Origin: Promethearchaeota archaeon | GTDB lineage: Archaea > Asgardarchaeota > Lokiarchaeia > Sigyniarchaeales > SOKP01 | Reading direction: 5' to 3' | DNA length: 64,000 bases | Assembly: GCA_030603385.1 (NCBI GenBank) | Contig: JAUVXW010000005.1 | Location: 92,568 to 156,567, forward strand | Shown here: piece after piece, positions 7,283 through 63,436 of the stretch | How the letters are laid out: each line of letters opens with the position of its first letter | Position numbering within the stretch: the stretch's first letter is position 1 | Made by a program: the position numbers and the translations under genes | The notes under the pieces: generated by a model | Seen by the model: the letters and a program-made list of their open reading frames with translations, nothing else | Database searches by the model: none | What the model was told of the DNA's origin: nothing

Positions 7283-7648
7283 TCAAATTAGGTATTTTTT
7301 CTCTATATTTTTATATATTTCATAATGGGTGAATTTTCCTTTCTTAACACCAAAAATTAATCCTGCTTGTTCTAATATTTTTATATGATGAGAAATTGCG
7401 GGTTGAGATAAATTTAAAATTGCTGTCAACTCGCATACACACATTTCTTTTTTTCCTATTAAGTTATAAATTAAAAATCTAACTTTATTTCCCAGTGCTT
7501 TAAAATAATTAACTTTTTCATTAAAATTTCTTTTAGATAATATTTCATCTTTATTTCTTTCTAAATCTTCAATATATTCATAAATATCCCTATCTACTCC
7601 AAAGCATTTAATTAAACTTTCTATTTCTTTTTTGTTCTTTAGATCCAT
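7283..7648 (-). CDS. ArsR/SmtB family transcriptional regulator
   Basis: FKALGNKVR, EMCVCEL, SQPAISHHIKIL. Confidence 0.9.
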   Translation of the reverse strand: MDLKNKKEIESLIKCFGVDRDIYEYIEDLERNKDEILSKRNFNEKVNYFKALGNKVRFLIYNLIGKKEMCVCELTAILNLSQPAISHHIKILEQAGLIFGVKKGKFTHYEIYKNIEKKYLI

Positions 7649-7813: not shown

Positions 7814-8257
7814 TCATACAAAATTAAATAATTCAAAGAATTTTTCAAAATTCTGTACATATTTCTGAAATTGTTCTTTAATTAATTCATAATGAGTAAA
7901 ATAACCTCTTTTTATACCTCTTATTATTTTCATGCGTTCAAGTATTTTTAAATGATGAGAAATTGAGGATTGTGCTTTATCTAGAATTGCTTCCAATTCA
8001 CATACACAATAATCTTTATCATTTAACAACTGCACAATTTTAAAGCGGGTTTCATTTCCTAAAACATTGGAGAATCTCGTAAGATCTATTATACTTTTAT
8101 TTTTATTTAATTTAATACCAATTTCTCTTAAGGTTTTAAAATAAGGTTCTATATCTTGATCTTGAAGATCAAAACATAGTTTCAGACTATTAATTATTTC
8201 AGCTTTTCTTTCGCTTTTAATTTGTATCACTTTCAAAATTTTACATATCGTATTCAA
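7814..8257 (-). CDS. ArsR/SmtB family transcriptional regulator (paralog of 7283-7648)
   Basis: LGNETRFKI, YCVCELE, QSSISHHLKIL; start codon uncertain. Confidence 0.88.
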   Translation of the reverse strand: MNTICKILKVIQIKSERKAEIINSLKLCFDLQDQDIEPYFKTLREIGIKLNKNKSIIDLTRFSNVLGNETRFKIVQLLNDKDYCVCELEAILDKAQSSISHHLKILERMKIIRGIKRGYFTHYELIKEQFQKYVQNFEKFFELFNFV

Positions 8258-8383: not shown

Positions 8384-9445
8384 ATGAGTCAAAAAGAGAA
8401 AAAATTAGGTGTCTTCGAGAAGTTTCTTCCCATATGGATTGCCTTATGTATAGTGTTTGGAATTTTTCTTTCTCAGGTTGTCCCAGGTATAAGTGAGGTT
8501 ATTGATGCTTTACAAATTGGTGGGATCTCAATACCTATTGGTATATGTTTATTTCTAATGATGTATCCTGCAATGTTGAATCTTCAAGCATCAGAATTGA
8601 AAAAATTGGGGAAAACCCCCAAACCGATTATACTAACTCTTTTTTCAAATTGGATTATTGCACCATTTGTTGGATTAGCGATGGCGCGAATATTTTTACA
8701 AGGAAATGAGCAATTAATAGTAGCAATTATACTTCTTTCAAGTTCACCTTGTACAGCTATGGTTTTAGTTTGGGGATGGCTCGCAAAGGGAAATCAAGAA
8801 CAAAATGTGATTAATACTAGTCTAAATACGGTTACCATTATTTTCTTATACGTTCCAATGGTAACATTATTGACTGGGATTCAAAATATTCCCATTAATT
8901 GGGTTCTTCTACTAATATCTCTATTTTATTTCATTGGTCTTCCCTTAATATTAGGAATAATTACGAAAAAAATAATTATTGCAAGAAAAGGAGAAAGTTG
9001 GTTTTATGACACTTATGTCCCTCTAGTTGGAAAAATTTCTATAGTTGCTTTATTAACAACGTTAGTGGTATTATTTTCTCTAAATGGAAAAGCGTTAATA
9101 AATAATCCTAATCTATTATTACTTGTTTCCGTCCCACTCTTAGTGGGCTTTGTAATCGTATTGGGCTATAATATTCTAATAACTAAGATTTTTAAATTGA
9201 AATATCGGCAAGCAATAATTACAGTTATTATTGGGTCGTCCAGCCATTTCGAGATTGCAATTGCAACTGCTATAGCCTTATATGGGATTGGTTCAATAGC
9301 AGCTTTAGGAACTACAATGGGATTATTTTGGGAAGTTCCAGTAATGTTATCAATGGTGTATTTAGGAAGATACTTGGGTAAAATTGGTTTCTGGAAAGAT
9401 TATAAAGAAGCAAATGAAGTCTATGGAAAACGTAATAAAGAATAA
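8384..9445 (+). CDS. acr3: Acr3 family arsenite efflux transporter
   Basis: MMYPAM, SPCTAMVLVW (catalytic Cys), SHFEIAIATA, WEVPVML; about 10 TM segments. Confidence 0.92.
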   Translation: MSQKEKKLGVFEKFLPIWIALCIVFGIFLSQVVPGISEVIDALQIGGISIPIGICLFLMMYPAMLNLQASELKKLGKTPKPIILTLFSNWIIAPFVGLAMARIFLQGNEQLIVAIILLSSSPCTAMVLVWGWLAKGNQEQNVINTSLNTVTIIFLYVPMVTLLTGIQNIPINWVLLLISLFYFIGLPLILGIITKKIIIARKGESWFYDTYVPLVGKISIVALLTTLVVLFSLNGKALINNPNLLLLVSVPLLVGFVIVLGYNILITKIFKLKYRQAIITVIIGSSSHFEIAIATAIALYGIGSIAALGTTMGLFWEVPVMLSMVYLGRYLGKIGFWKDYKEANEVYGKRNKE

Positions 9446-9511
9446 TTCAATAGGAATTTAATATAAATTAAAATTTTTTTATTTATTAAAATCAACAGGG
9501 GGTGAGTAGAG

Positions 9512-9976
9512 TTAAAAAACTTAAAATTTAAAATATCTATTCCGATAAAAGGTCTACAAAGTGGAAAGTTATATGATATCAAGGCAAAGGATGATGCAAA
9601 TTTTATTGAAGCTTTGGCATTAGTAGATAAAAAAGAGATGGAAAGTTTGAATAAACAAATATTTCCTCTCTATGAGGGATATATCCATAATTATCTTCAA
9701 CTATTTGTAAATATAGAAGATGAGGTTATTTATGATGATGTCGGCTTATCTCCATATGCTCCTGACGAGGAAGGTCTTTATCGAAAATTCAACCCAATAA
9801 GGGAAAATATCCATTTCAATTTATATCCTGACACGATTATTGATTTACAACAAGATGTTGGATGTTGATGAGAAAAAGTGAAAAGTAGATTAGACTTTGG
9901 TAAATTTAAAACAATAATTCGCACAAAATATGGTAAAAATAATGAATATTTTGCACATTATTTCAAAAGTAAATAA
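9512..9976 (+). CDS. candidate selenoprotein with G-C-U-U motif (ORF track gives only 9614-9868); start codon uncertain
   Basis: Frame is open from 9506 after an SD-like GGGGGTGA (9498-9505). TGA TGA at 9866-9871 follows a Cys codon, the frame stays open 34 more codons to TAA 9974-9976, and a SECIS-like element follows immediately. Confidence 0.6.
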
Positions 9977-9983
9977 ATAAAAA

Positions 9984-10066
9984 AGGAATAATTAAAAAAA
10001 TTGAATGAAATCTTTTAAAAAATGCTAGTGAAAGATGAACAATAGGATTGCGTCCTATATATTCCT
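9984..10066 (+). ncRNA. SECIS-like element (second copy)
   Basis: TTGA-ATGA-A-[ATCTTTTA]-AAAAATGCTAG-[TGAAAGAT]-GA core at 10001-10038; side hairpin ATAGGAT/GTCCTAT 10042-10058; closing helix AGGAATA 9984-9990/TATTCCT 10060-10066; closely matches the element after mvhD. Confidence 0.7.
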
Positions 10067-10109: not shown

Positions 10110-11150
10110 ATGAAAGAAATTCAAAATAAATCTTTAATCTATATAATAGAGAATAGTAATGATGAAAATAAGAGGTATAAGTCATTAAAAGCATTACAAA
10201 ATGATTTTAATTGTACAAATAGAGGTTTTACATTTTTAGAAAACCTTTTAATCTCAGATTTAAATCCAAAAATTCGTAAAAAAGCTGCAGAGGTTCTGGC
10301 AGAATATCATTTTCCAAAAGCACTACACCCGATTAAATGGGTATTACAAATTGATAATTCTCTAAACTGTGTAATAAAATATATAGAATTAATAAAAAAT
10401 TATAATAAAACATTTCTTAATCTTTTTTTAATCAATGAAATCGAGCATTATGTAAGTAAGTATAAAAATTTTCAATCAAAACTAGCAAAATGTAAATTTT
10501 ATAAAAATGATCTTAATGATTTGATTGAAATTTACTTGAATTATAAAGTTTTAAATAATTTAATAATAGTTTTTTCAAATCTAAATAACGAGAATAAAAA
10601 TGTTATAATACAGGAAGGAAAAATAAAAAAGTTAGTGCTTACAAATTATAAAATAAAGAACATTAAAGATATTGAGGGATTAGATATGCTAAAACATTTA
10701 GAGAATTTAAACCTAAGCTTTAATGATATCTCTGAAATTAATGGGCTAAATGGTTTATTAAAATTGCGGAATTTAAACCTTTCTCATAATAAGATAACTA
10801 AAATTGAAAATCTTGAAAATCTTACTGAGTTAAGTTCACTAAATTTAGGATTCAATAAAATTGAGAAAATAACAGGTTTAACAAATAAAAAAAAATTAAA
10901 AAATCTAAACCTCTTGCACAATAAGATTATAGAATTCAATGGTTTAATCCCGCTTCAATCATTAGAAACTATTAATTTATCAAAAAATTTAATTTCTGAG
11001 ATAAATGATTTAGATAATTTTATAAATTTGAAATATCTTGATTTAACCCTAAATAACATACCAGATATAAGTAAATATGATAAATATAAGAAAAAAATCA
11101 GCCTTATAATCTATGGAAATCCCTTTAATACCTATGATCCTGGTCTATAA
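10110..11150 (+). CDS. HEAT-like N-terminus + leucine-rich repeat protein (SDS22-type LRRs)
   Basis: FLENLLISDLNPKIR; repeated LxxLNLSxNxIxxIxxL. Confidence 0.85.
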   Translation: MKEIQNKSLIYIIENSNDENKRYKSLKALQNDFNCTNRGFTFLENLLISDLNPKIRKKAAEVLAEYHFPKALHPIKWVLQIDNSLNCVIKYIELIKNYNKTFLNLFLINEIEHYVSKYKNFQSKLAKCKFYKNDLNDLIEIYLNYKVLNNLIIVFSNLNNENKNVIIQEGKIKKLVLTNYKIKNIKDIEGLDMLKHLENLNLSFNDISEINGLNGLLKLRNLNLSHNKITKIENLENLTELSSLNLGFNKIEKITGLTNKKKLKNLNLLHNKIIEFNGLIPLQSLETINLSKNLISEINDLDNFINLKYLDLTLNNIPDISKYDKYKKKISLIIYGNPFNTYDPGL

Positions 11151-11273: not shown

Positions 11274-11612
11274 ATGAATTCATTCAAAAAACGAGACTAC
11301 TATGAGGTACTGGGTATAGGTCGAAATGCCACTAAAATCCAGATCAAATTAGCATATCGACGACTGGCAAAAAAGTATCATCCTGATAAGAATAAAAAAG
11401 ATCTAAAAGCAAAAGAAAAATTTATTGAGATTCATGAAGCATATGAAATTTTAAATGATCCAGAACGAAGAGCACATTATGATCATTTAGGTTTCAGCAA
11501 GATATTTTTTGATAAAGAATCTAAATCAACTCATTCAAATACAGATTTTAAAGATTATGATTTTGGGAGCAATTTTGTAAATTATATTTCTAAATATTTT
11601 AAAGGAAAATAA
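11274..11612 (+). CDS. J-domain-only protein (DnaJ domain)
   Basis: DYYEVLGI...[12 protein letters not shown]...F.EI.EAYEIL; no zinc finger or C-terminal domain. Confidence 0.9.
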
Positions 11613-11690: not shown

Positions 11691-12167
11691 TTAATTTTCA
11701 TCGAATTTATCAATGTCAAGACCTTGTTTCTTTAATACTTGAAGTACAGACTCAATTACCTTTCTTATATCCTCCTCTTTAATTTCGCTTAATTTAGGGA
11801 GATTTTTAAAAGTATTGAGATCATTTAAATTCATACGTTGCTTAGGGATGATATCTTGGACTGAAATAATCAAATCTGGTACAATACTAAGATGTTTATA
11901 TATTGTACTTGCACAGGCTGTATTACATCCGATAATAATAAGAATAAAGGAATGTTTGAGATGATTTTTAGTAATTTCAACTAATTGTTGTTTTTCTAAT
12001 AATACATTTTTAAGAAAAATAGTGGAGCATGTCATTGAGCTAATAGAAGCTATTTTACTTTTCTCTGCCAATCGTATTGCGACCTGTCGTGCTAATTCAC
12101 CATGATATTCTGAACCTGAACATGTTATTAAGACAATGTTTTCTACCTGGATTTCCTTTTTACTCAA
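11691..12167 (-). CDS. DGC-domain (putative Zn-binding) protein
   Basis: ITCSGSEYHGELARQVA...C...IIGCNTACA, same pattern as 14513 and 14936. Confidence 0.65.
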   Translation of the reverse strand: MSKKEIQVENIVLITCSGSEYHGELARQVAIRLAEKSKIASISSMTCSTIFLKNVLLEKQQLVEITKNHLKHSFILIIIGCNTACASTIYKHLSIVPDLIISVQDIIPKQRMNLNDLNTFKNLPKLSEIKEEDIRKVIESVLQVLKKQGLDIDKFDEN

Positions 12168-12168
12168 A

Positions 12169-12462
12169 TTAAATCAAACCTTTTGCCTTCAATATTTCTG
12201 GTAGCTTTTTCTTCAGAGCAAATGAAGTCGTAACGATTTCATTTCCATCAATAACTATACTATTACCATGCAAATTCAATCTTCTTGCTTCTTCAGAATC
12301 TAAATTTTTTGTATCGAATGATATATACTTATTATAGGGTGTAATTACCTGAAAAACGAGATTCATAAATCTTTCCCATTGGCAAGCGCATACATTTAAA
12401 GGTACATAAATTTCTACTTTAAGTTTATTTTCCTTTTGAACTTCACTTTCTTGTTGACTCAT
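12169..12462 (-). CDS. small thioredoxin-fold-like protein with CAC motif
   Basis: EIYVPLNVCACQW ... SIVIDG; loosely ArsD/thioredoxin-like. Confidence 0.4.
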   Translation of the reverse strand: MSQQESEVQKENKLKVEIYVPLNVCACQWERFMNLVFQVITPYNKYISFDTKNLDSEEARRLNLHGNSIVIDGNEIVTTSFALKKKLPEILKAKGLI

Positions 12463-12477
12463 TTTAACACCTTCATT

Positions 12478-12798
12478 TTATATTTTTTGCTGGAGTTCTA
12501 CAATTTTTTTAAATTTTTCATTTCTTTTAATTAAATTATCTACTATTGCCAATAACTTGAAAATTTGGGTATCTTTTACTTTAAACAATTTTTTATTTCC
12601 TTCCCTTCTACTTTCAAGGATATCCGCTTCAGTAAGAGTTTTTAAATGTCTAGATAATGTAGATTGAGTTTTATCAAACACTTTTTCAATGTCGCAAACA
12701 CAAATCTCATTTCCATGCCTTAGAAACTCTAAAAGTTTTAATCTAGTTTCATCGGAGAGAGCTCTTAATAAATCCAATCTTAAATTTTCAAGTTTCAT
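12478..12798 (-). CDS. ArsR/SmtB family transcriptional regulator
   Basis: RALSDETRLKLL, EICVCDI, TQSTLSRHLKTL, SRREG. Confidence 0.92.
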   Translation of the reverse strand: MKLENLRLDLLRALSDETRLKLLEFLRHGNEICVCDIEKVFDKTQSTLSRHLKTLTEADILESRREGNKKLFKVKDTQIFKLLAIVDNLIKRNEKFKKIVELQQKI

Positions 12799-12932: not shown

Positions 12933-13319
12933 TTGAACAATACAAAAAAAGAAATTGGATTCATTATGTGTGTTTGTACTGGAAAATGCCCTGGATTTGC
13001 TAAAATGGATATATGGGATTTTATTAATCGTATAAGAATTGAACTTCCTGTAGAATATGGATTTATTCATCCTCAATTGTGTGAAGAAGATGGCGATAGA
13101 TTTTTAGATGATTATTTAAGTTCTGGTCGAAAATATATGGTGGCAGGATGTGCTCCAAACATGCAATATAAGTTATTTAGAGACGCTTTTAAGAAAGCAG
13201 GATTAGATATAAAAACAGATTTAATTCCCTTGGATATTCGCGAAATGACTACAGATGAAGCTGTTAATTTAGTTGAAAAGAGCCTGGAGAAATTAGAGGA
13301 GGATATTAAAAATGAGTAA
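12933..13319 (+). CDS. stand-alone HdrA N-terminal-domain-like Fe-S protein
   Basis: MCVC...QLC...VAGCAP...F...GLD...LDIRE aligns with the HdrA N-terminus at 25832 (ICQU...SLU...VSCTP...F...ID...ANIRE). Confidence 0.7.
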   Translation: MNNTKKEIGFIMCVCTGKCPGFAKMDIWDFINRIRIELPVEYGFIHPQLCEEDGDRFLDDYLSSGRKYMVAGCAPNMQYKLFRDAFKKAGLDIKTDLIPLDIREMTTDEAVNLVEKSLEKLEEDIKNE

Positions 13320-13614
13320 GAGTTATGATGCTGAAAAAGAAACGTTTATGGGAGTTCCAAGAAAAAAGATTCCCTGGTGGCCTATAATAGATTATGATAA
13401 ATGCAACTTTTGCATGGAATGTGATAAATTTTGCCCACATAATGTATATGCAAAGAATAATGATGAAAAACAACAGCTAATAGTTAAAAATCCATACAAT
13501 TGTGTAGTATTTTGTCGTGCGTGCGCTAAGACTTGCGCTCCTGATGCTTTATCATTCCCAGATAAGCGGGAAACGACTAATCTAATAAAGAAGCTTAGAA
13601 GTGAAAATAAGTAG
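13312..13614 (+). CDS. 2x[4Fe-4S] ferredoxin family protein
   Basis: CNFCMECDKFCP and CVVFCRACAKTC. Confidence 0.9.
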   Translation: MSKSYDAEKETFMGVPRKKIPWWPIIDYDKCNFCMECDKFCPHNVYAKNNDEKQQLIVKNPYNCVVFCRACAKTCAPDALSFPDKRETTNLIKKLRSENK

Positions 13615-13626
13615 ATGTGATGCATA

Positions 13627-14511
13627 ATGGATAAACAGTTATGTGTTTTACCTTGCAACGGTCTAGATAAATCACTAGGGGTAATTGCGAGAGCAGTAGC
13701 ACTTAATCTAATTGAAAAAAAACTTGATTTTAATTTAATTTGTCCAGTTTTGCTGAATACGGGCGATGAGAAATATGAATCTAATTTAAGAGAATCTAGA
13801 ACTATTGTAATCGATGGTTGTATGACTAGATGTGCTACAAAACTAATCGAAGAACGAAATCAAAAAATTTACAAACGAATATTTATCCCCGATATGTCAA
13901 AAAAATTAAAAATAAAACCTGGGACGAGTTTAAAATTGAGTGAAAATGCCAAGAAATTAGCTGAAATGATTGCTAAGGGGTTTTTAGAAGAACTAAAAGT
14001 AAGCGAAAAAGAAGATATAGTTATCGTAGCTAAGACAGAAAGGATGGATTTTTTTGATATTACTGTGGACAAATTCTATTTTCAAGTTCCTAAAGAGGGA
14101 TATTTCTTCAATGAAAACGATTGTTGGATCAAACCAGATAGTAATAGAGCTCTAATTGGTATTACAGATTATCTGCAGAATCAGTCAAGTGATATAATGT
14201 TTGTAGAATTACCCGAAATTGGTCAAGAAATTGAACAATTCGATGATGTTGGTTCTTTTGAATCTGTTAAAACAGTATTGCAATTAATATCTCCTGGTTC
14301 AGGAAAAATTGTTGCTGTCAATAAAGCGTTAGAAGAACATCCTGAATGGATGAATCAGGATTGTTATCAGCAAGGATGGTTTGCAGAATTAGAGTTAAAA
14401 GATTTTGAGGAGGATAAAGAATTACTTATGGATGGTCCAGAATATTTTGAATATATGAAAGAAAAAATATTAAACGAAAAGGAATTATTAGATAAAGAAA
14501 AAGAGGATTAA
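13627..14511 (+). CDS. DGC domain fused to glycine-cleavage-H-like lipoyl carrier domain
   Basis: N-terminal LPCNG...ICP...IDGCMTRCA; C-terminal IGITDYLQ...FVELPEIG...ESVKT (lipoyl Lys)...PGSGKIVAVN..L...PE.MN.D.Y..GW. Confidence 0.85.
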   Translation: MDKQLCVLPCNGLDKSLGVIARAVALNLIEKKLDFNLICPVLLNTGDEKYESNLRESRTIVIDGCMTRCATKLIEERNQKIYKRIFIPDMSKKLKIKPGTSLKLSENAKKLAEMIAKGFLEELKVSEKEDIVIVAKTERMDFFDITVDKFYFQVPKEGYFFNENDCWIKPDSNRALIGITDYLQNQSSDIMFVELPEIGQEIEQFDDVGSFESVKTVLQLISPGSGKIVAVNKALEEHPEWMNQDCYQQGWFAELELKDFEEDKELLMDGPEYFEYMKEKILNEKELLDKEKED

Positions 14512-14512
14512 G

Positions 14513-14935
14513 ATGAATGAAAAGAAAGTTTATATTGTTCCGTGTAGCGGAATTGGAAAAGTTTTTGGAAGCATTGGTAGAAAAACAGCATATATAGTCG
14601 TTAACGAATTAGCGAAGGATAAGACCACTTTAGAATGCTTACCTTTAATAGTAAATGGTAAAAAGGAAGTCATTGAGGCAATAAAGGAAAATAAAGTAAT
14701 CGCCTTAGATGGCTGCCCCTTAAAATGTTCTTATAATGATTTAATGGAAGCTGTTGGAAAAGTAGATGCTCAGTTTTTGACTACTGATATTGTAAAGGAA
14801 AATAAAGATTTAAAACCAGAACCTTCAATTATTCCAGTTGGAGAAAATACTAAGCAATTGTCGATAAAATTAGCAGAAAAGGTGGCTGCTGAAGTTGATA
14901 AATTATTAGAAGAAAACATGGAGAGGGACGATTAA
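14513..14935 (+). CDS. DGC-domain (putative Zn-binding) protein
   Basis: PCSGIGKVFG...ECL...ALDGCPLKC. Confidence 0.8.
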   Translation: MNEKKVYIVPCSGIGKVFGSIGRKTAYIVVNELAKDKTTLECLPLIVNGKKEVIEAIKENKVIALDGCPLKCSYNDLMEAVGKVDAQFLTTDIVKENKDLKPEPSIIPVGENTKQLSIKLAEKVAAEVDKLLEENMERDD

Positions 14936-15355
14936 ATGAAAAAAAAGGTTGGAATTATTGCTTGTAGTGGTGAAAAATTAGTTGGAGGCACTTTAAGTCG
15001 CGCAGCTGCGAGAATAGTTGTTGAAAAATTACGACCAAATAATACGATTATTTTATGTCAACCCTTATTTATGGCAGGTGGGTTAGAAAGGCATGGTGGG
15101 CAACAGGAGAGGGACTTTGCAAAAAATCATCCAACGATAACAATAGAAGGATGTGAAGAGGAATGTGCTAAAATTGCTGTTGATAAGTATAGTGGTAAGC
15201 CTGCAGCAACCATATATATTCAAGAGATTGCGGAAACATATCCTGAACTAAAGCCAAAATCCCGTGAAGATTTAGGAGAGGATGGTATGAAACTTGCTGA
15301 AATAATTGCTGAAGAAATAGCGAAAAAAGTGGATGAATTATTTCAAAGTAAATAA
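14936..15355 (+). CDS. DGC-domain (putative Zn-binding) protein
   Basis: ACSGE...LCQP...IEGCEEECA. Confidence 0.75.
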   Translation: MKKKVGIIACSGEKLVGGTLSRAAARIVVEKLRPNNTIILCQPLFMAGGLERHGGQQERDFAKNHPTITIEGCEEECAKIAVDKYSGKPAATIYIQEIAETYPELKPKSREDLGEDGMKLAEIIAEEIAKKVDELFQSK

Positions 15356-15395
15356 TAATGAATTGATAAAAATTAAAATTTTTTAGAGTATTTAA

Positions 15396-16121
15396 ATGGA
15401 AAGGGATAAAAGTAAAATTAAGATTGGAATTGTATCTGATGGAAAATATGGTGAAAGAGCTTTTGAAAACACTAAAAAGCATTTTGATGTAGAATGGATA
15501 TTAGTCCCAGATATCCCTCCAACAGTTATGTTAGATGATGACCTTTACTTTGATATCCCGGAGTGCGAGCTTTATTTATCATATGTTCGGCATCCAGATA
15601 TCATTTTGGAACTAGCTGGACTCCAAAAACCATTAATCTTAGGCATAACACCTGGTCTTGGTTTATTAAAGCAAGCTAGAAATATTAATCCTAAAGTAGT
15701 TGGTCCTCGAACCATGTGTTCTTTAGAACCGTATACAGGAATTCCAGAGATTGATACTTTCGCAAAATATTTTGGAAAACCTCTTTTTGAATTAAATTTA
15801 GACAAGGAGACGAAAATTTTAAATGTAACGGTTTTAAGATCATCCCCATGCGGCTCCTCAGCTGTGGGAGCAAATTTCATGTTAAATAAAAAGTTAAGTA
15901 AAAAAATTTTTCAGGATTATGCTTTAATAGTATGTCATGAATGTAGAGCTCCTCGTTTTGGTCATACTTGCGATAAAGAAGTATCAGGAATCATTCACAT
16001 TCTTTCCTTTATAAATTGTATTGATCCTGAAAAAAGATCCATGTTCAATAATGAGTTGCAAGAATTTATTAAAAATTTGAATCAAGAATACAAAAATAAA
16101 ACTGAAATGAAAATATTGTGA
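15396..16121 (+). CDS. DUF166 family protein
   Basis: GIVSDGKYGERA, HPDI, MCSLE, FGKP, VLRSSPCGS, CRA. Confidence 0.75.
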   Translation: MERDKSKIKIGIVSDGKYGERAFENTKKHFDVEWILVPDIPPTVMLDDDLYFDIPECELYLSYVRHPDIILELAGLQKPLILGITPGLGLLKQARNINPKVVGPRTMCSLEPYTGIPEIDTFAKYFGKPLFELNLDKETKILNVTVLRSSPCGSSAVGANFMLNKKLSKKIFQDYALIVCHECRAPRFGHTCDKEVSGIIHILSFINCIDPEKRSMFNNELQEFIKNLNQEYKNKTEMKIL

Positions 16122-25831: not shown

Positions 25832-27814
25832 ATGGTAGAGACAAAAAGTGATACTATTCAAAAAGACGATGACATTCCAAGGATTGCTGTGTTTATATGC
25901 CAATGAGGTTTAAATATAGCAGAAATAATTGACACAAAAAAATTAGGAGAATTCACAAAAACTCTTCCGAATGTAGTTGAGGCTATAGACTATATAAGTT
26001 TGTGAACTGAGCCTGGAGCAGAGTTTATAAAGGAAAAAATGATTGAAACCAACGCAAATAGACTAGTGGTTGTTTCATGTACTCCAAAAACCCACGAACC
26101 CGTCTTTAAAAGCGTATTGGAATCAATGAATATAGATCCATCTTATTTGGAATTTGCTAACATACGTGAGCATTCTAGCTTTGTGCATAGGCAAGATAAA
26201 ATAGGTGCCCAGAAAGTTGCTGAAGACGCTACTCGATCTGCTGTCGCAAGAGCTGCAGTCTTAGAGAAGATCTTAATTAAAGAAGTTGATATAACAAAAA
26301 AAGCTCTTATAATTGGTGGAGGAGTTGCGGGATTATCTGCGGGAATCGATTTAGCTGAAGAAGGATTCGAAGTATATTTAGTAGAGAAAAAACCTACAAT
26401 AGGTGGCAAAATGGCACAATTAGATCGTACTTTTCCTACAGATGATTGTAGTATATGAATATTAGGTCCTGTTATGCTTCAAGCTGCGAGGACTCCAGGG
26501 CTGAATCTATATACATATAGTGAAGTAGAGGATGTACAAGGATTTGTCGGGAATTTTACTGTAAAAGTTCGTAAGAGAGCACGATATGTAAATAATGACT
26601 GTAATGGTTGTGGAGCATGTTGGGAGGTATGTCCTGCTTATGGATACAATGAATTTAATGAAGGATTAGATTCAAGAAAAGCTATATATTCGGCATTTGC
26701 ACAAGCAGTTCCTTCACTAGCTCAAATTGATATGGATAGGTGTATAAAATGTGAGCTTTGTAAGGCTGCGTGTGAAGTAGATGCGATTGATTTTGATCAA
26801 AAAGATGAAATAATAGAAATAAACGTAGGATCGATTGCTGTTGCTACTGGTTGGGACGAATTTGAGCCACCAACTGGATATTTAGGTTATAATAAATATC
26901 CAAATGTAATTACACAATTAAAACTTGAGAGAATACTTGCACCAAATGGCCCCACTCTTGGACACCTTGTACGGCCATCAGATGGGAAAGAACCAAAAAA
27001 AATTCTATTTATTCAATGCGTAGGATCTAGAGATTTAAATATGAATACCTACTGTAGCTCTGGTGTTTGTTGTATGATCTCAATAAAGAATAGCAAATTG
27101 ATTAAACAACATTCCCCTGATGCTAATATTACTGTAGCTTATATGGATATGAGAGCAGCAGGCAAAGATTACGAAGAATATTTTACACTTTCACGAAAAG
27201 AAGGTATAAAATACATTAGAACGAATGTTAGCAGGATAAAAGAAGATCCAAAAACCCATAATCTTAAAATTGTCATGCAAAATACATTAAGCTCAGGGGG
27301 GTTAAAGGAACTAGAATTTGACATGGTTGTACTCTCAGCAGCAATGGTGCCCGCAAAAGGAGTAGAAAGTATTCAAAAACTATTAAAACTTGAGATGAGC
27401 CAAGATGGTTTTTTTAAAGAATTCCATGCGAGATTAAATCCTATTGACACAAAAATACCGGGTATAGTCCTTTCAGGGGCGAGTCAAGGTCCAAAATCGA
27501 TTGTTGAGTCTATTGCCCATGGACGAGCAGCAGCATCTTCATTAGCTCGACTTATGGGTAAAGATAAATATCGAATACTTTTAATCCGAGCGGCTGTAGA
27601 AGACAAGGATAAATGCGCAAAATGCGGGTTATGTGAATTAAATTGTCCGTATAATGCCATAACTATAAACGATGATGGTGCTGAAGTAAATGAGATACTA
27701 TGCAGAGGTTGTGGGACTTGTTTGGCTAATTGCCCTTCAGAAGCAATTACCTTGAGATACTATAGAGAACCTCATTATGAAAAACAAATCGACGCAATTT
27801 TGGAGGAGATTTAG
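25832..27814 (+). CDS. hdrA: heterodisulfide reductase subunit A, selenoprotein (660 aa; Sec25, Sec58, Sec209)
   Basis: One frame from ATG 25832 with TGA at 25904, 26003 and 26456, each at a conserved Cys site (FICQUG, SLUTEPG, FPTDDCSIUILGP); FAD motif IIGGGVAG, ferredoxin inserts, QCVGSRD. Confidence 0.93.
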
Positions 27815-27827
27815 AGGGGTGGATGAA

Positions 27828-28301
27828 ATGGCTAGTGAGTCAAATAATGATATTAAAATTTTAGCTTTTCTCTGTTGGAAATGAGGTTATGGAGCAGGAG
27901 ATATGGCTGGAACAATTCGTGCTCAATATCCTGCAACATTAAGACCTGTCAGAATAAATTGTACGGGAAGAGTAACACCCTCTCTGATGATGAGAGCGAT
28001 AGGGAAGGGAGCTGATGGTGTAGTCGTGGGTGCTTGATATCCTGGAGAATGTGATTATGAAACAGGTAATTTAGTTGCTGAGAGAAACGTACAATATGTA
28101 AAAGAAATTTTAAAAACAACAGGTATCTCTCCAGAGAGAGTACAAATGTTTCATTGCAGTGCTGCTGAAGGACAAAAATTTCAAATTGAAGCTACAAGAA
28201 TTTCAGAAGTAATTAAAAATTTAGGCAATAATCCCATTAAGGATTCAAAAAAATCTAACATTAAATCTAATGATCCAGTAGTTAAGAAAAAGAAAAATTA
28301 A
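27828..28301 (+). CDS. mvhD: MvhD/VhuD/FlpD [2Fe-2S] subunit, selenoprotein (157 aa; Sec19, Sec70); absent from the ORF track
   Basis: ILAFLCWKUGYGAGDMAG..R.QYP..L...RINCTGRV...GADGVVVGAUYPGECDY..GN...PERV...CSAAEG; TGA at 27882 and 28035. Confidence 0.93.
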
Positions 28302-28302
28302 A

Positions 28303-28369
28303 CCGATTGAATGAATCTTATGAGAAAATATTAGTCATATGATGACAGACCATATTGTAATGGTTTCGG
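28303..28369 (+). ncRNA. SECIS element (eukaryote-like, lokiarchaeal type) serving hdrA-mvhD
   Basis: ATGA 28311-28314, stem ATCTTATGA/TCATATGAT, A-rich loop GAAAATATTAG, GA 28344-28345 (AUGA_AA_GA kink-turn core); side hairpin GACCAT/ATGGTT; closing CCGA/TCGG. Confidence 0.8.
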
Positions 28370-28591
28370 CTAATAATAATTTTTAATAAAGTTAATATCA
28401 ATTAATTTGTACTCATTTTTTCATAATTATAATCTTATTAAAATTTCCTTTAAGAAATTTCATTTAAGAGTTAAGTAAAAAGAAATTCAATAATAATTTT
28501 TATTTAAAACATTAACCAATCCAAAAAATACTCATTCATAAAGAAAAAAAAAAAATTGTTTTTAATTTAATAATAAAAAATCGTTAATTAT

Positions 28592-63331: not shown

Positions 63332-63436
63332 GCAGATGTAGCCTAGCTGGTAAGACGCCAGCTTCGAGTATATTTCTCATCATTCGAGAAAGCTGGTGCG
63401 CGGAAGCGTTCGGGGGTTCGAGTCCCTCCATCTGCG
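63332..63436 (+). tRNA. tRNA-Ser(CGA) with 22-nt intron at 37/38 (63369-63390)
   Basis: Acceptor GCAGATG/CATCTGC, G73, anticodon stem CCAGC/GCTGG, long variable arm, T-loop TTCGAGT; TTCG pairs with intron CGAG; CCA not encoded. Confidence 0.92.

Follow-up and report, generated by a model that had tools for sequence, protein, structure and literature searches.

The window, i.e. the whole 64-kb stretch of Promethearchaeota DNA that was analysed (30% G+C), carries a short reading frame between acr3 and a structured RNA element (Table 1). Gene callers close this frame at the first TGA. The sequence-only reading of the window had proposed that it continues as a selenoprotein gene through G-C-TGA-TGA and 34 further codons to a TAA, with a SECIS element behind it, and all letters and positions of this proposal agree with the sequence: the frame 9512–9976 encodes ...QQDVGC, followed by TGA 9866–9868, TGA 9869–9871, 34 sense codons and TAA 9974–9976.

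Table 1. Coordinates of the predicted selenoprotein gene, its SECIS element, its neighbours and the reference selenoprotein genes of the window
Feature	Position	Strand	Basis or remark
Second arsR, CVC motif	7283–7648	-	Pfam HTH_5
arsR-type regulator, CVC motif, divergent from acr3	7814–8257	-	Pfam HTH_5 (E 7e-15 and 2e-14 for the two arsR)
acr3, arsenite/antimonite efflux permease	8384–9445	+	Pfam SBF, 4.8e-39; 66 nt upstream of the selenoprotein gene
Shine-Dalgarno-like GGGGGTGA	9498–9505	+	GGTGA(T) kept 6–7 nt before the start column in genus homologs
Predicted selenoprotein CDS	9512–9976	+	154 residues plus TAA; likely start is the non-canonical TTA 9512
TGT-TGA-TGA, predicted Cys117-Sec118-Sec119	9863–9871	+	Paired TGA in 32/32 aligned homologs
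C-terminal tail, 34 codons, helical in the model	9872–9973	+	Conserved as protein; pLDDT 85–97
lokiSECIS, three-way junction	9984–10066	+	Fold; VhuD-derived model R1; covariation in homologs
Closing helix	9984–9990 with 10060–10066	+	Fold
SECIS core ATGA	10005–10008	+	Precedes the hairpin stem
SECIS stem	10009–10017 with 10029–10037	+	Fold
SECIS loop, 11 nt	10018–10028	+	Fold
AA past the SECIS stem	10038–10039	+	Homologs read GA
Second hairpin	10043–10057	+	Fold
DGC-domain protein (11691–12167), p97 (12169–12462), arsR (12478–12798)	11691–12798	-	Pfam; p97 by model and thioredoxin matches
Reference selenoprotein genes hdrA (3 UGA) and vhuD (2 UGA, 27828–28301), single SECIS (28300–28372)	25832–28372	+

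Directly past the SECIS lies a gene for a leucine-rich-repeat protein with an N-terminal HEAT-like segment (10110–11150, +), followed by a gene for a small DnaJ-domain protein (11274–11612); both are conserved only in a twin assembly at 97% identity. Divergent from the third arsR, an operon at 12933–16121 (+) holds genes for a 128-aa protein of unknown kind, a ferredoxin with 2x[4Fe-4S], a DGC-GcvH fusion, two further proteins with DGC domains and one DUF166 protein; it may form a redox module for thiols or lipoyl groups under the control of ArsR. At 63332–63436 (+) there is an Rfam tRNA match of 105 nt (42.3 bits), uncalled by ARAGORN, which is probably an intron-containing tRNA.

Reading frame, homologs and start codon

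The evidence from the single sequence is weak, since at least 34 sense codons follow 6.4% of all stops in the 64-kb window (and 3 of its 68 TGATGA hexamers); the comparative data take the case far beyond chance. A six-frame protein search of 41 related genomes found the read-through protein in 32; 36 of the 37 matches contain exactly two TGA, and the alignments reach the end of the tail. Thirty-two copies were aligned, including a paralog from the same genome (contig C34) and members of three other taxonomic families of the order, down to 22% identity. TGA-TGA stands at the same place in all 32 copies, and TAA or TAG takes that place in none. The sequence behind it is conserved as protein: the tail is 31–45 residues long and has shared residues, R126, F132, G141 and Y150 being nearly or fully invariant and FAHYF common within the genus. 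There is no in-frame stop in 684 tail codons of 19 genus-level homologs, compared with 9% and 13% in the other two frames, and within the genus the differences at codon positions 1, 2 and 3 (0.25/0.21/0.36) follow the coding pattern. Thus, the homolog comparison supports the proposed read-through, the G-C-U-U product and the conserved tail.

When 400 genomes of the phylum were searched with a profile, the selenoprotein family was identified in 138, all of one class, and every one of the matches listed holds two TGA. Its carriers include the single-contig genomes G171, G032, G038, G006 and G023. The family is present in 117 of 134 genomes (~87%) of the taxonomic family to which the window belongs (f1), in 20 of 26 genomes of the other families of the class (f2–f7) and in 0 of 239 genomes from the rest of the phylum. 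In a search for related loci with the single protein, matches were found only in uncultured Promethearchaeota/Promethearchaeia MAGs. Among the 1.84 billion representatives of public protein sets, the family accounts for only 86 clusters, most of which end at the Cys; a few read through with TGA translated as Trp. Distant non-Sec relatives retain only the Cys, in the motif G-x-C-I/S/T-T/S-D/E-F/W-E. One non-Sec relative, with C-V-S in place of C-U-U, lies directly upstream of a NifU_N/IscU-like gene (L070 1274–2216), on an Asgard-like metagenomic contig that also bears an Arf-family GTPase gene; contigs of distant non-Sec relatives were otherwise too short to reveal their gene neighbourhoods. 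A genome-wide reassignment of TGA was considered and rejected, because TGA is the stop of 4 of the 36 long ORFs in the window, and in three homologs the family gene too ends in TGA, immediately at its SECIS.

Three possible starts had been named by the sequence-only reading, namely TTA 9512, GTG 9502 with a 1-nt slip, and TTG 9614, and only TTA 9512 stands up to the comparison, being aligned with the ATG or ATT of homologs. Its alignment column holds ATG in three distant homologs (L022, L023, L026), ATT, ATA or ATC in 17 members of the genus, always 7 nt past GGTGAT, GTT or GTA in two close orthologs, ACG in two distant members (distant members also use GCG at the same spacing) and TTA in the window gene and its 97% twin. 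The frame in the window has no ATG, GTG or TTG ahead of TTG 9614. Because of these start-column codons, the conservation among homologs of the 34 N-terminal residues ahead of TTG 9614, and the out-of-frame position of the GTG within GGTGA in the window gene and three other members, TTA 9512 appears to be the best-placed start. TTG 9614 was rejected because it would remove the conserved first two strands, and GTG 9502 because the 97% twin shares both the A-run and the in-frame TGA with the window, and because this GTG lies within GGTGA(T), the ribosome-binding motif kept among homologs. The selenoprotein family thus appears to be characterised by non-AUG initiation. The non-canonical TTA makes the level of expression uncertain; with a non-AUG start behind a good Shine-Dalgarno sequence, it would probably be low. 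The combination of GGTGAT and a non-ATG start may represent a conserved translational throttle in the genus.

The lokiSECIS element and the decoding machinery

The lokiSECIS (the Asgard type I eSECIS-like element) is known from the genes of HdrA-VhuD, VhuU, PrxL and SelD (Mariotti 2016, PMC4989117; Huang 2024, PMC11227280). It is defined by AUGA, a 9-bp stem, an 11-nt loop starting with adenines and ending with AG, and then GA, or AA in VhuU (Mariotti 2016, PMC4989117), and AUGA_AA variants have been confirmed (Huang 2024, PMC11227280). The element behind the new gene spans 8–90 nt past the stop and folds in three parts with -15.5 kcal/mol (z -2.8). Its claimed likeness to the SECIS behind mvhD (vhuD), at 28303–28370 within the stretch 28300–28372, is borne out, as both share the TTGAATGA flank and the architecture, and the 11-nt loops are identical at 8 of 11 positions. 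The homologs have elements canonical for the pattern of AUGA, 9-bp stem, 11-nt loop and GA, with the core reading TGAAAGATT-GA; the window and its 97% twin read TGAAAGATG-AA, and this variant explains the extra A that had been put down as a caveat. The window element can be drawn either with a 9-position stem that has A.G at its base and is followed by AA, or with an 8-bp stem and a bulged A, after which GA comes; the A.G stem base and the AA core are both within the published variation. In the genus the lokiSECIS forms part of a three-way junction, in which a closing helix (CCGA/UCGG behind vhuD) encloses the kink-turn hairpin and, on the 3' side of this, a conserved second hairpin whose sequence is nearly invariant in the new family (UAGGA-N5-UCCUA).

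The new element was identified independently by a covariance model (R1) whose training set consisted solely of elements located behind VhuD genes, 22 in number, from related genomes. In the window it scored 67 bits for mvhD's own element and 23.2 bits (E 1.4e-4) for 9994–10053, with the next match at 8.9 bits. In 170 kb of homolog loci R1 matched at 22 loci, each time immediately behind the family gene, and gave no other match. On the whole 3.9-Mb genome it produced 10 matches, of which the 9 with at least 23 bits all lie behind UGA genes (HdrA/VhuD, two PrxL, a small membrane protein, the window gene and its paralog), while the tenth (18.9 bits) is not behind a UGA-containing gene; the E-value of the window family element rises to 0.0086 at this scale. 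The window element is a weaker variant (A.G base, AA), and its score is the lowest but two in its family. Across the family elements 96.6% of cells are paired and four pairs have changed on both sides, a level of covariation attained by 0 of 500 shuffles. Rfam at gathering thresholds reported no SECIS family in the window and missed the known mvhD element as well, so this negative result is uninformative.

The genome encodes tRNA-Sec (63 bits) and SepSecS (391 bits), adjacent on contig C41, and has further UGA-bearing genes for HdrA, VhuD and PrxL. In the window hdrA and vhuD are 13 nt apart with one SECIS, after vhuD, which would have to serve UGA codons up to ~2.4 kb away, an arrangement described for HdrA-VhuD by Mariotti 2016 (PMC4989117). 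Another R1 match of 67.6 bits (G000:C20:5918–5987, L071) lies behind an ORF of ~77 residues with one UGA (...GGSSUAC...) and a hydrophobic helix, which looks like a small membrane selenoprotein absent from the published lists.

Taken together, the UGA codons that behave as sense codons, the coding tail, the lokiSECIS and the presence of tRNA-Sec, SepSecS and other selenoprotein genes indicate that both UGA codons at 9866–9871 are almost certainly decoded as selenocysteine. A genuine Sec-Sec selenoprotein is as well supported as sequence analysis allows.

Predicted fold, motif and genomic context

The AlphaFold2 model, built with a 26-sequence alignment, is confident (pLDDT 91.9, pTM 0.89) and consists of a β-grasp domain with a confidently helical tail that is predicted to pack back on it. 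Foldseek identified Urm1, SAMP1 and MoaD as the best matches, with target-normalised TM-scores of 0.6–0.7 (0.61–0.70 to Urm1 and SAMP1), and an exhaustive aligner (VIA) ranked CysO (Z 7.0) and SAMP1 (Z 6.9) first, with middling scores. The N-terminal β-grasp/MoaD-like domain suspected from the sequence is thus supported by the predicted fold and its matches; the scores establish a common fold of the model and these proteins, not a function. No sequence similarity to β-grasp carriers was found by Pfam, and a feature-based search of the ESM Atlas returned no usable match. In the model Cys117-Sec118-Sec119 lies just past the last strand, where the sulfur carriers end in Gly-Gly. Hence, the new family resembles MoaD, ThiS, CysO, Urm1 and SAMP1 in the β-grasp fold and in having the reactive residues emerge at the end of the last strand, but it has Cys-Sec-Sec followed by a conserved helical tail (34 residues in the window protein) instead of a free C-terminal Gly-Gly, and would therefore not be expected to carry out thiocarboxylate chemistry.

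The Cys-Sec-Sec motif itself, as originally claimed, holds as G-C-U-U for the subgroup of the window protein (A) and for all distant families, but not for subgroup B of the genus, which aligns without gaps as D-U-U-A and has a conserved Cys at the start of strand β3 (DDC) instead. The Cys preceding the Sec pair is widespread and ancestral, though replaced in one subgroup of the genus. Judging from β-grasp topology, the β3-start Cys (residue 77) should come to lie beside the last strand's end, and every member would then retain one sulfur and two selenium atoms close together.

The association with metal(loid) genes extends well beyond the window. acr3, at 60–84% identity, adjoins the family gene in most loci, including those of distant families (L022, L029), and arsR homologs flank it in many; two distant members have both acr3 and arsR at their side. 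The arsR, p97 and DGC genes, which in the window lie downstream on the opposite strand, are co-operonic with the family gene in relatives, where the common order is arsR | acr3 - p97 - selenoprotein - YdjM-like membrane protein - HD protein; subgroup B shows the order acr3-p97-selenoprotein, and the genome G023 has arsR - p97 - DGC - selenoprotein. The p97 protein (VPL-x-x-C-x-C-E/Q-W) has no Pfam or NCBIfam family and shares an operon with acr3 and the selenoprotein in many genomes. Its model shows a thioredoxin fold, in which the invariant CxC takes the active-site position; in the paralogous locus (L021) it has an N-terminal Cys/Ser-rich extension. Another genus of the order has, in three genomes, a CDF cation-efflux pump gene directly upstream of the family gene, and a CDF gene also abuts one family copy in G005. 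The 5-kb surroundings of several distant members are free of metal genes, their neighbours being GH94, FAD/enoyl-CoA hydratase and CN-hydrolase genes. An HgcA-like methyltransferase was rejected as a part of the locus, because the PF03599 matches lie far from both family loci of the genome. On the whole, the neighbouring acr3/arsR or CDF genes appear to favour a role in metal(loid) binding or redox chemistry. Conserved synteny is likewise the ground for the suggestions that the gene would be co-transcribed with acr3 under ArsR control and that its product might be a chelator, chaperone or reductase.

The new gene shares with the known lokiSECIS genes the in-frame UGA, the architecture of the 3'-UTR element, and the genome with its decoding machinery, and differs in the adjacent Sec pair and in its occurrence in metal(loid)-efflux operons rather than in energy metabolism. 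Mammalian thioredoxin reductase has a C-terminal Gly-Cys-Sec-Gly redox arm; its neighbouring chalcogens can close an 8-membered ring through S and Se, and arsenicals and gold are known to target the arm with high affinity. Subgroup A and the distant members (not subgroup B) similarly carry Gly-Cys-Sec on a flexible segment, but with a second Sec in place of Gly, with the motif internal, and with no flavoprotein/oxidoreductase domain detected by Pfam. ArsD is a small cytosolic ars-operon protein which binds As(III) on three thiolates, including a vicinal Cys-Cys, and hands it to the efflux system; its fold is that of thioredoxin, its ligands are all Cys and the pump component that it serves is the ArsA ATPase. 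The C-U-U motif, or U-U with the relocated Cys, may be analogous to this three-thiolate site, whereas the β-grasp fold, the would-be S/Se/Se ligands and the pump (Acr3 or CDF) are different; no match to the ArsD domain (PF06953) was found by Pfam in the selenoprotein, and in fold it is the neighbour p97, with its CxC, that is closer to ArsD. Bacterial metal-linked selenoproteins modelled in NCBIfam include the double selenoprotein MbdU (CU motif) and SaoC (review, PMC13188914). These are bacterial, with the SECIS inside the coding region, and the new family has no sequence match in NCBIfam.

Possible function and significance

The overall explanation that we regard as the best, and to which we would give somewhat better than an even chance, is a Sec-Sec selenoprotein with a metal(loid)-binding and hand-off role. 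As to the function in particular, the protein may bind thiophilic metal(loid)s in the cytosol, primarily As(III)/Sb(III), a proposal whose chances we put at just about even or slightly below. The ion would be held by three neighbouring chalcogen ligands (S, Se, Se), and the selenoprotein would either keep it buffered or deliver it to the efflux pump encoded next to it, i.e. Acr3 in the window and CDF in another family of the order; p97, with its CxC thioredoxin fold, could act as a relay or as a reductant that keeps the Se-Se/S-Se site reduced. Against such a reading we count that the Gly-Cys-Sec arm with a thioredoxin-like neighbour fits a redox role equally well, that distant members lack nearby metal genes, and that non-Sec relatives have Cys only, one of them beside NifU_N.

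The most serious rival is a genuine Sec-Sec redox enzyme, whose C-U-U arm would cycle between selenol and selenenylsulfide/diselenide, for instance an arsenate or other oxyanion reductase acting in place of ArsC with p97 as the electron donor. It would account for the identity of Gly-Cys-Sec with the redox arm of thioredoxin reductase, for the co-operonic p97 of subgroup B and G023, and for the missing arsC, which is found beside neither ars-like locus of the genome, PF03960 (ArsC) being undetected genome-wide; two LMWPc-type proteins encoded elsewhere in the genome are, however, possible Trx-coupled ArsC enzymes, association with a divalent-cation pump of the CDF type leaves a reductase without a role, and dwellers of anoxic sediments meet mostly As(III). 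We consider such an enzyme rather unlikely. A still less probable reading, which we rate as distinctly doubtful, makes the Sec-Sec protein a chalcogen carrier holding sulfane sulfur or selenide as a perselenide/selenotrisulfide on the C-U-U loop, for cofactor synthesis or for converting As/Hg to inert compounds with Se/S. Sulfur carriers (CysO, SAMP1, Urm1 and MoaD) are indeed the best structural matches, the reactive residues take the position of their Gly-Gly tail, and one non-Sec relative adjoins NifU_N, but a free C-terminal Gly-Gly is absent, the Pfam scans of neighbouring genes turned up no E1-like activating enzyme, and a structural Z of ~7 is middling and shows only a common fold.

The readings considered so far presuppose recoding. 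If instead the gene ended at the Cys with a tandem stop, the downstream frame and the hairpin would be due to chance or to a terminator. Tandem stops are common, runs of at least 34 sense codons follow stops in this AT-rich window at the frequency given above, and gene callers stop at the first TGA, as do most of the 86 clusters; but every homolog listed, down to the most divergent, has TGA-TGA and never TAA or TAG, the tail is conserved as protein and confidently folded onto the domain, and the independent model finds a SECIS behind the family gene in 22 further loci. This reading we regard as already refuted as far as sequence can go, with a negligible chance of being right. Between binding with hand-off and reduction, the association with pumps of differing chemistry (Acr3, CDF) and the retention of three chalcogens despite the moved Cys lead us to favour a binding/hand-off role analogous to that of ArsD, with a redox function involving p97 as a serious rival and the chalcogen carrier as a weaker one.

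As a more far-reaching and tentative proposal, which we hold to be possible rather than probable, the family could be a Lokiarchaeia-wide selenium metallochaperone on a ubiquitin-like scaffold, in which a Cys-Sec-Sec claw replacing Gly-Gly would capture As(III)/Sb(III), in certain lineages also soft divalent metals, and pass them on to Acr3/CDF with the CxC partner; the nearly universal non-AUG start would then throttle initiation to the slow pace at which two Sec are decoded.

The published Asgard selenoproteome comprises seven families (SelD, FrhA/VhuU, HdrA, FrhD/VhuD, PrxL, AhpF-N and DsbA-like), found by homology to known ones in more than 400 Asgard genomes (Huang 2024, PMC11227280; review, PMC13188914). 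The new family is on none of the lists of Mariotti 2016, Huang 2024 or the 2026 review, and Pfam and NCBIfam scans of the selenoprotein revealed no family at E up to 0.1, which upholds the initial impression that it falls outside the known archaeal selenoprotein families. A full-text literature search for adjacent or consecutive selenocysteines returned nothing comparable in archaea, and no publication was found on an archaeal gene in which tandem Sec-Sec decoding is obligatory. The family would thus be the eighth, lineage-specific selenoprotein family of Asgard archaea, of the de novo kind that homology-based catalogues miss, and its genes are cut at the first UGA in database annotations, with most of the 86 clusters affected. 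Since two adjacent UGA must both be decoded, it offers a natural test case for the efficiency and processivity of the eukaryote-like Sec machinery of Asgard archaea, and S/Se/Se chemistry on a ubiquitin-like fold would bear on the evolution of ubiquitin-like carriers.
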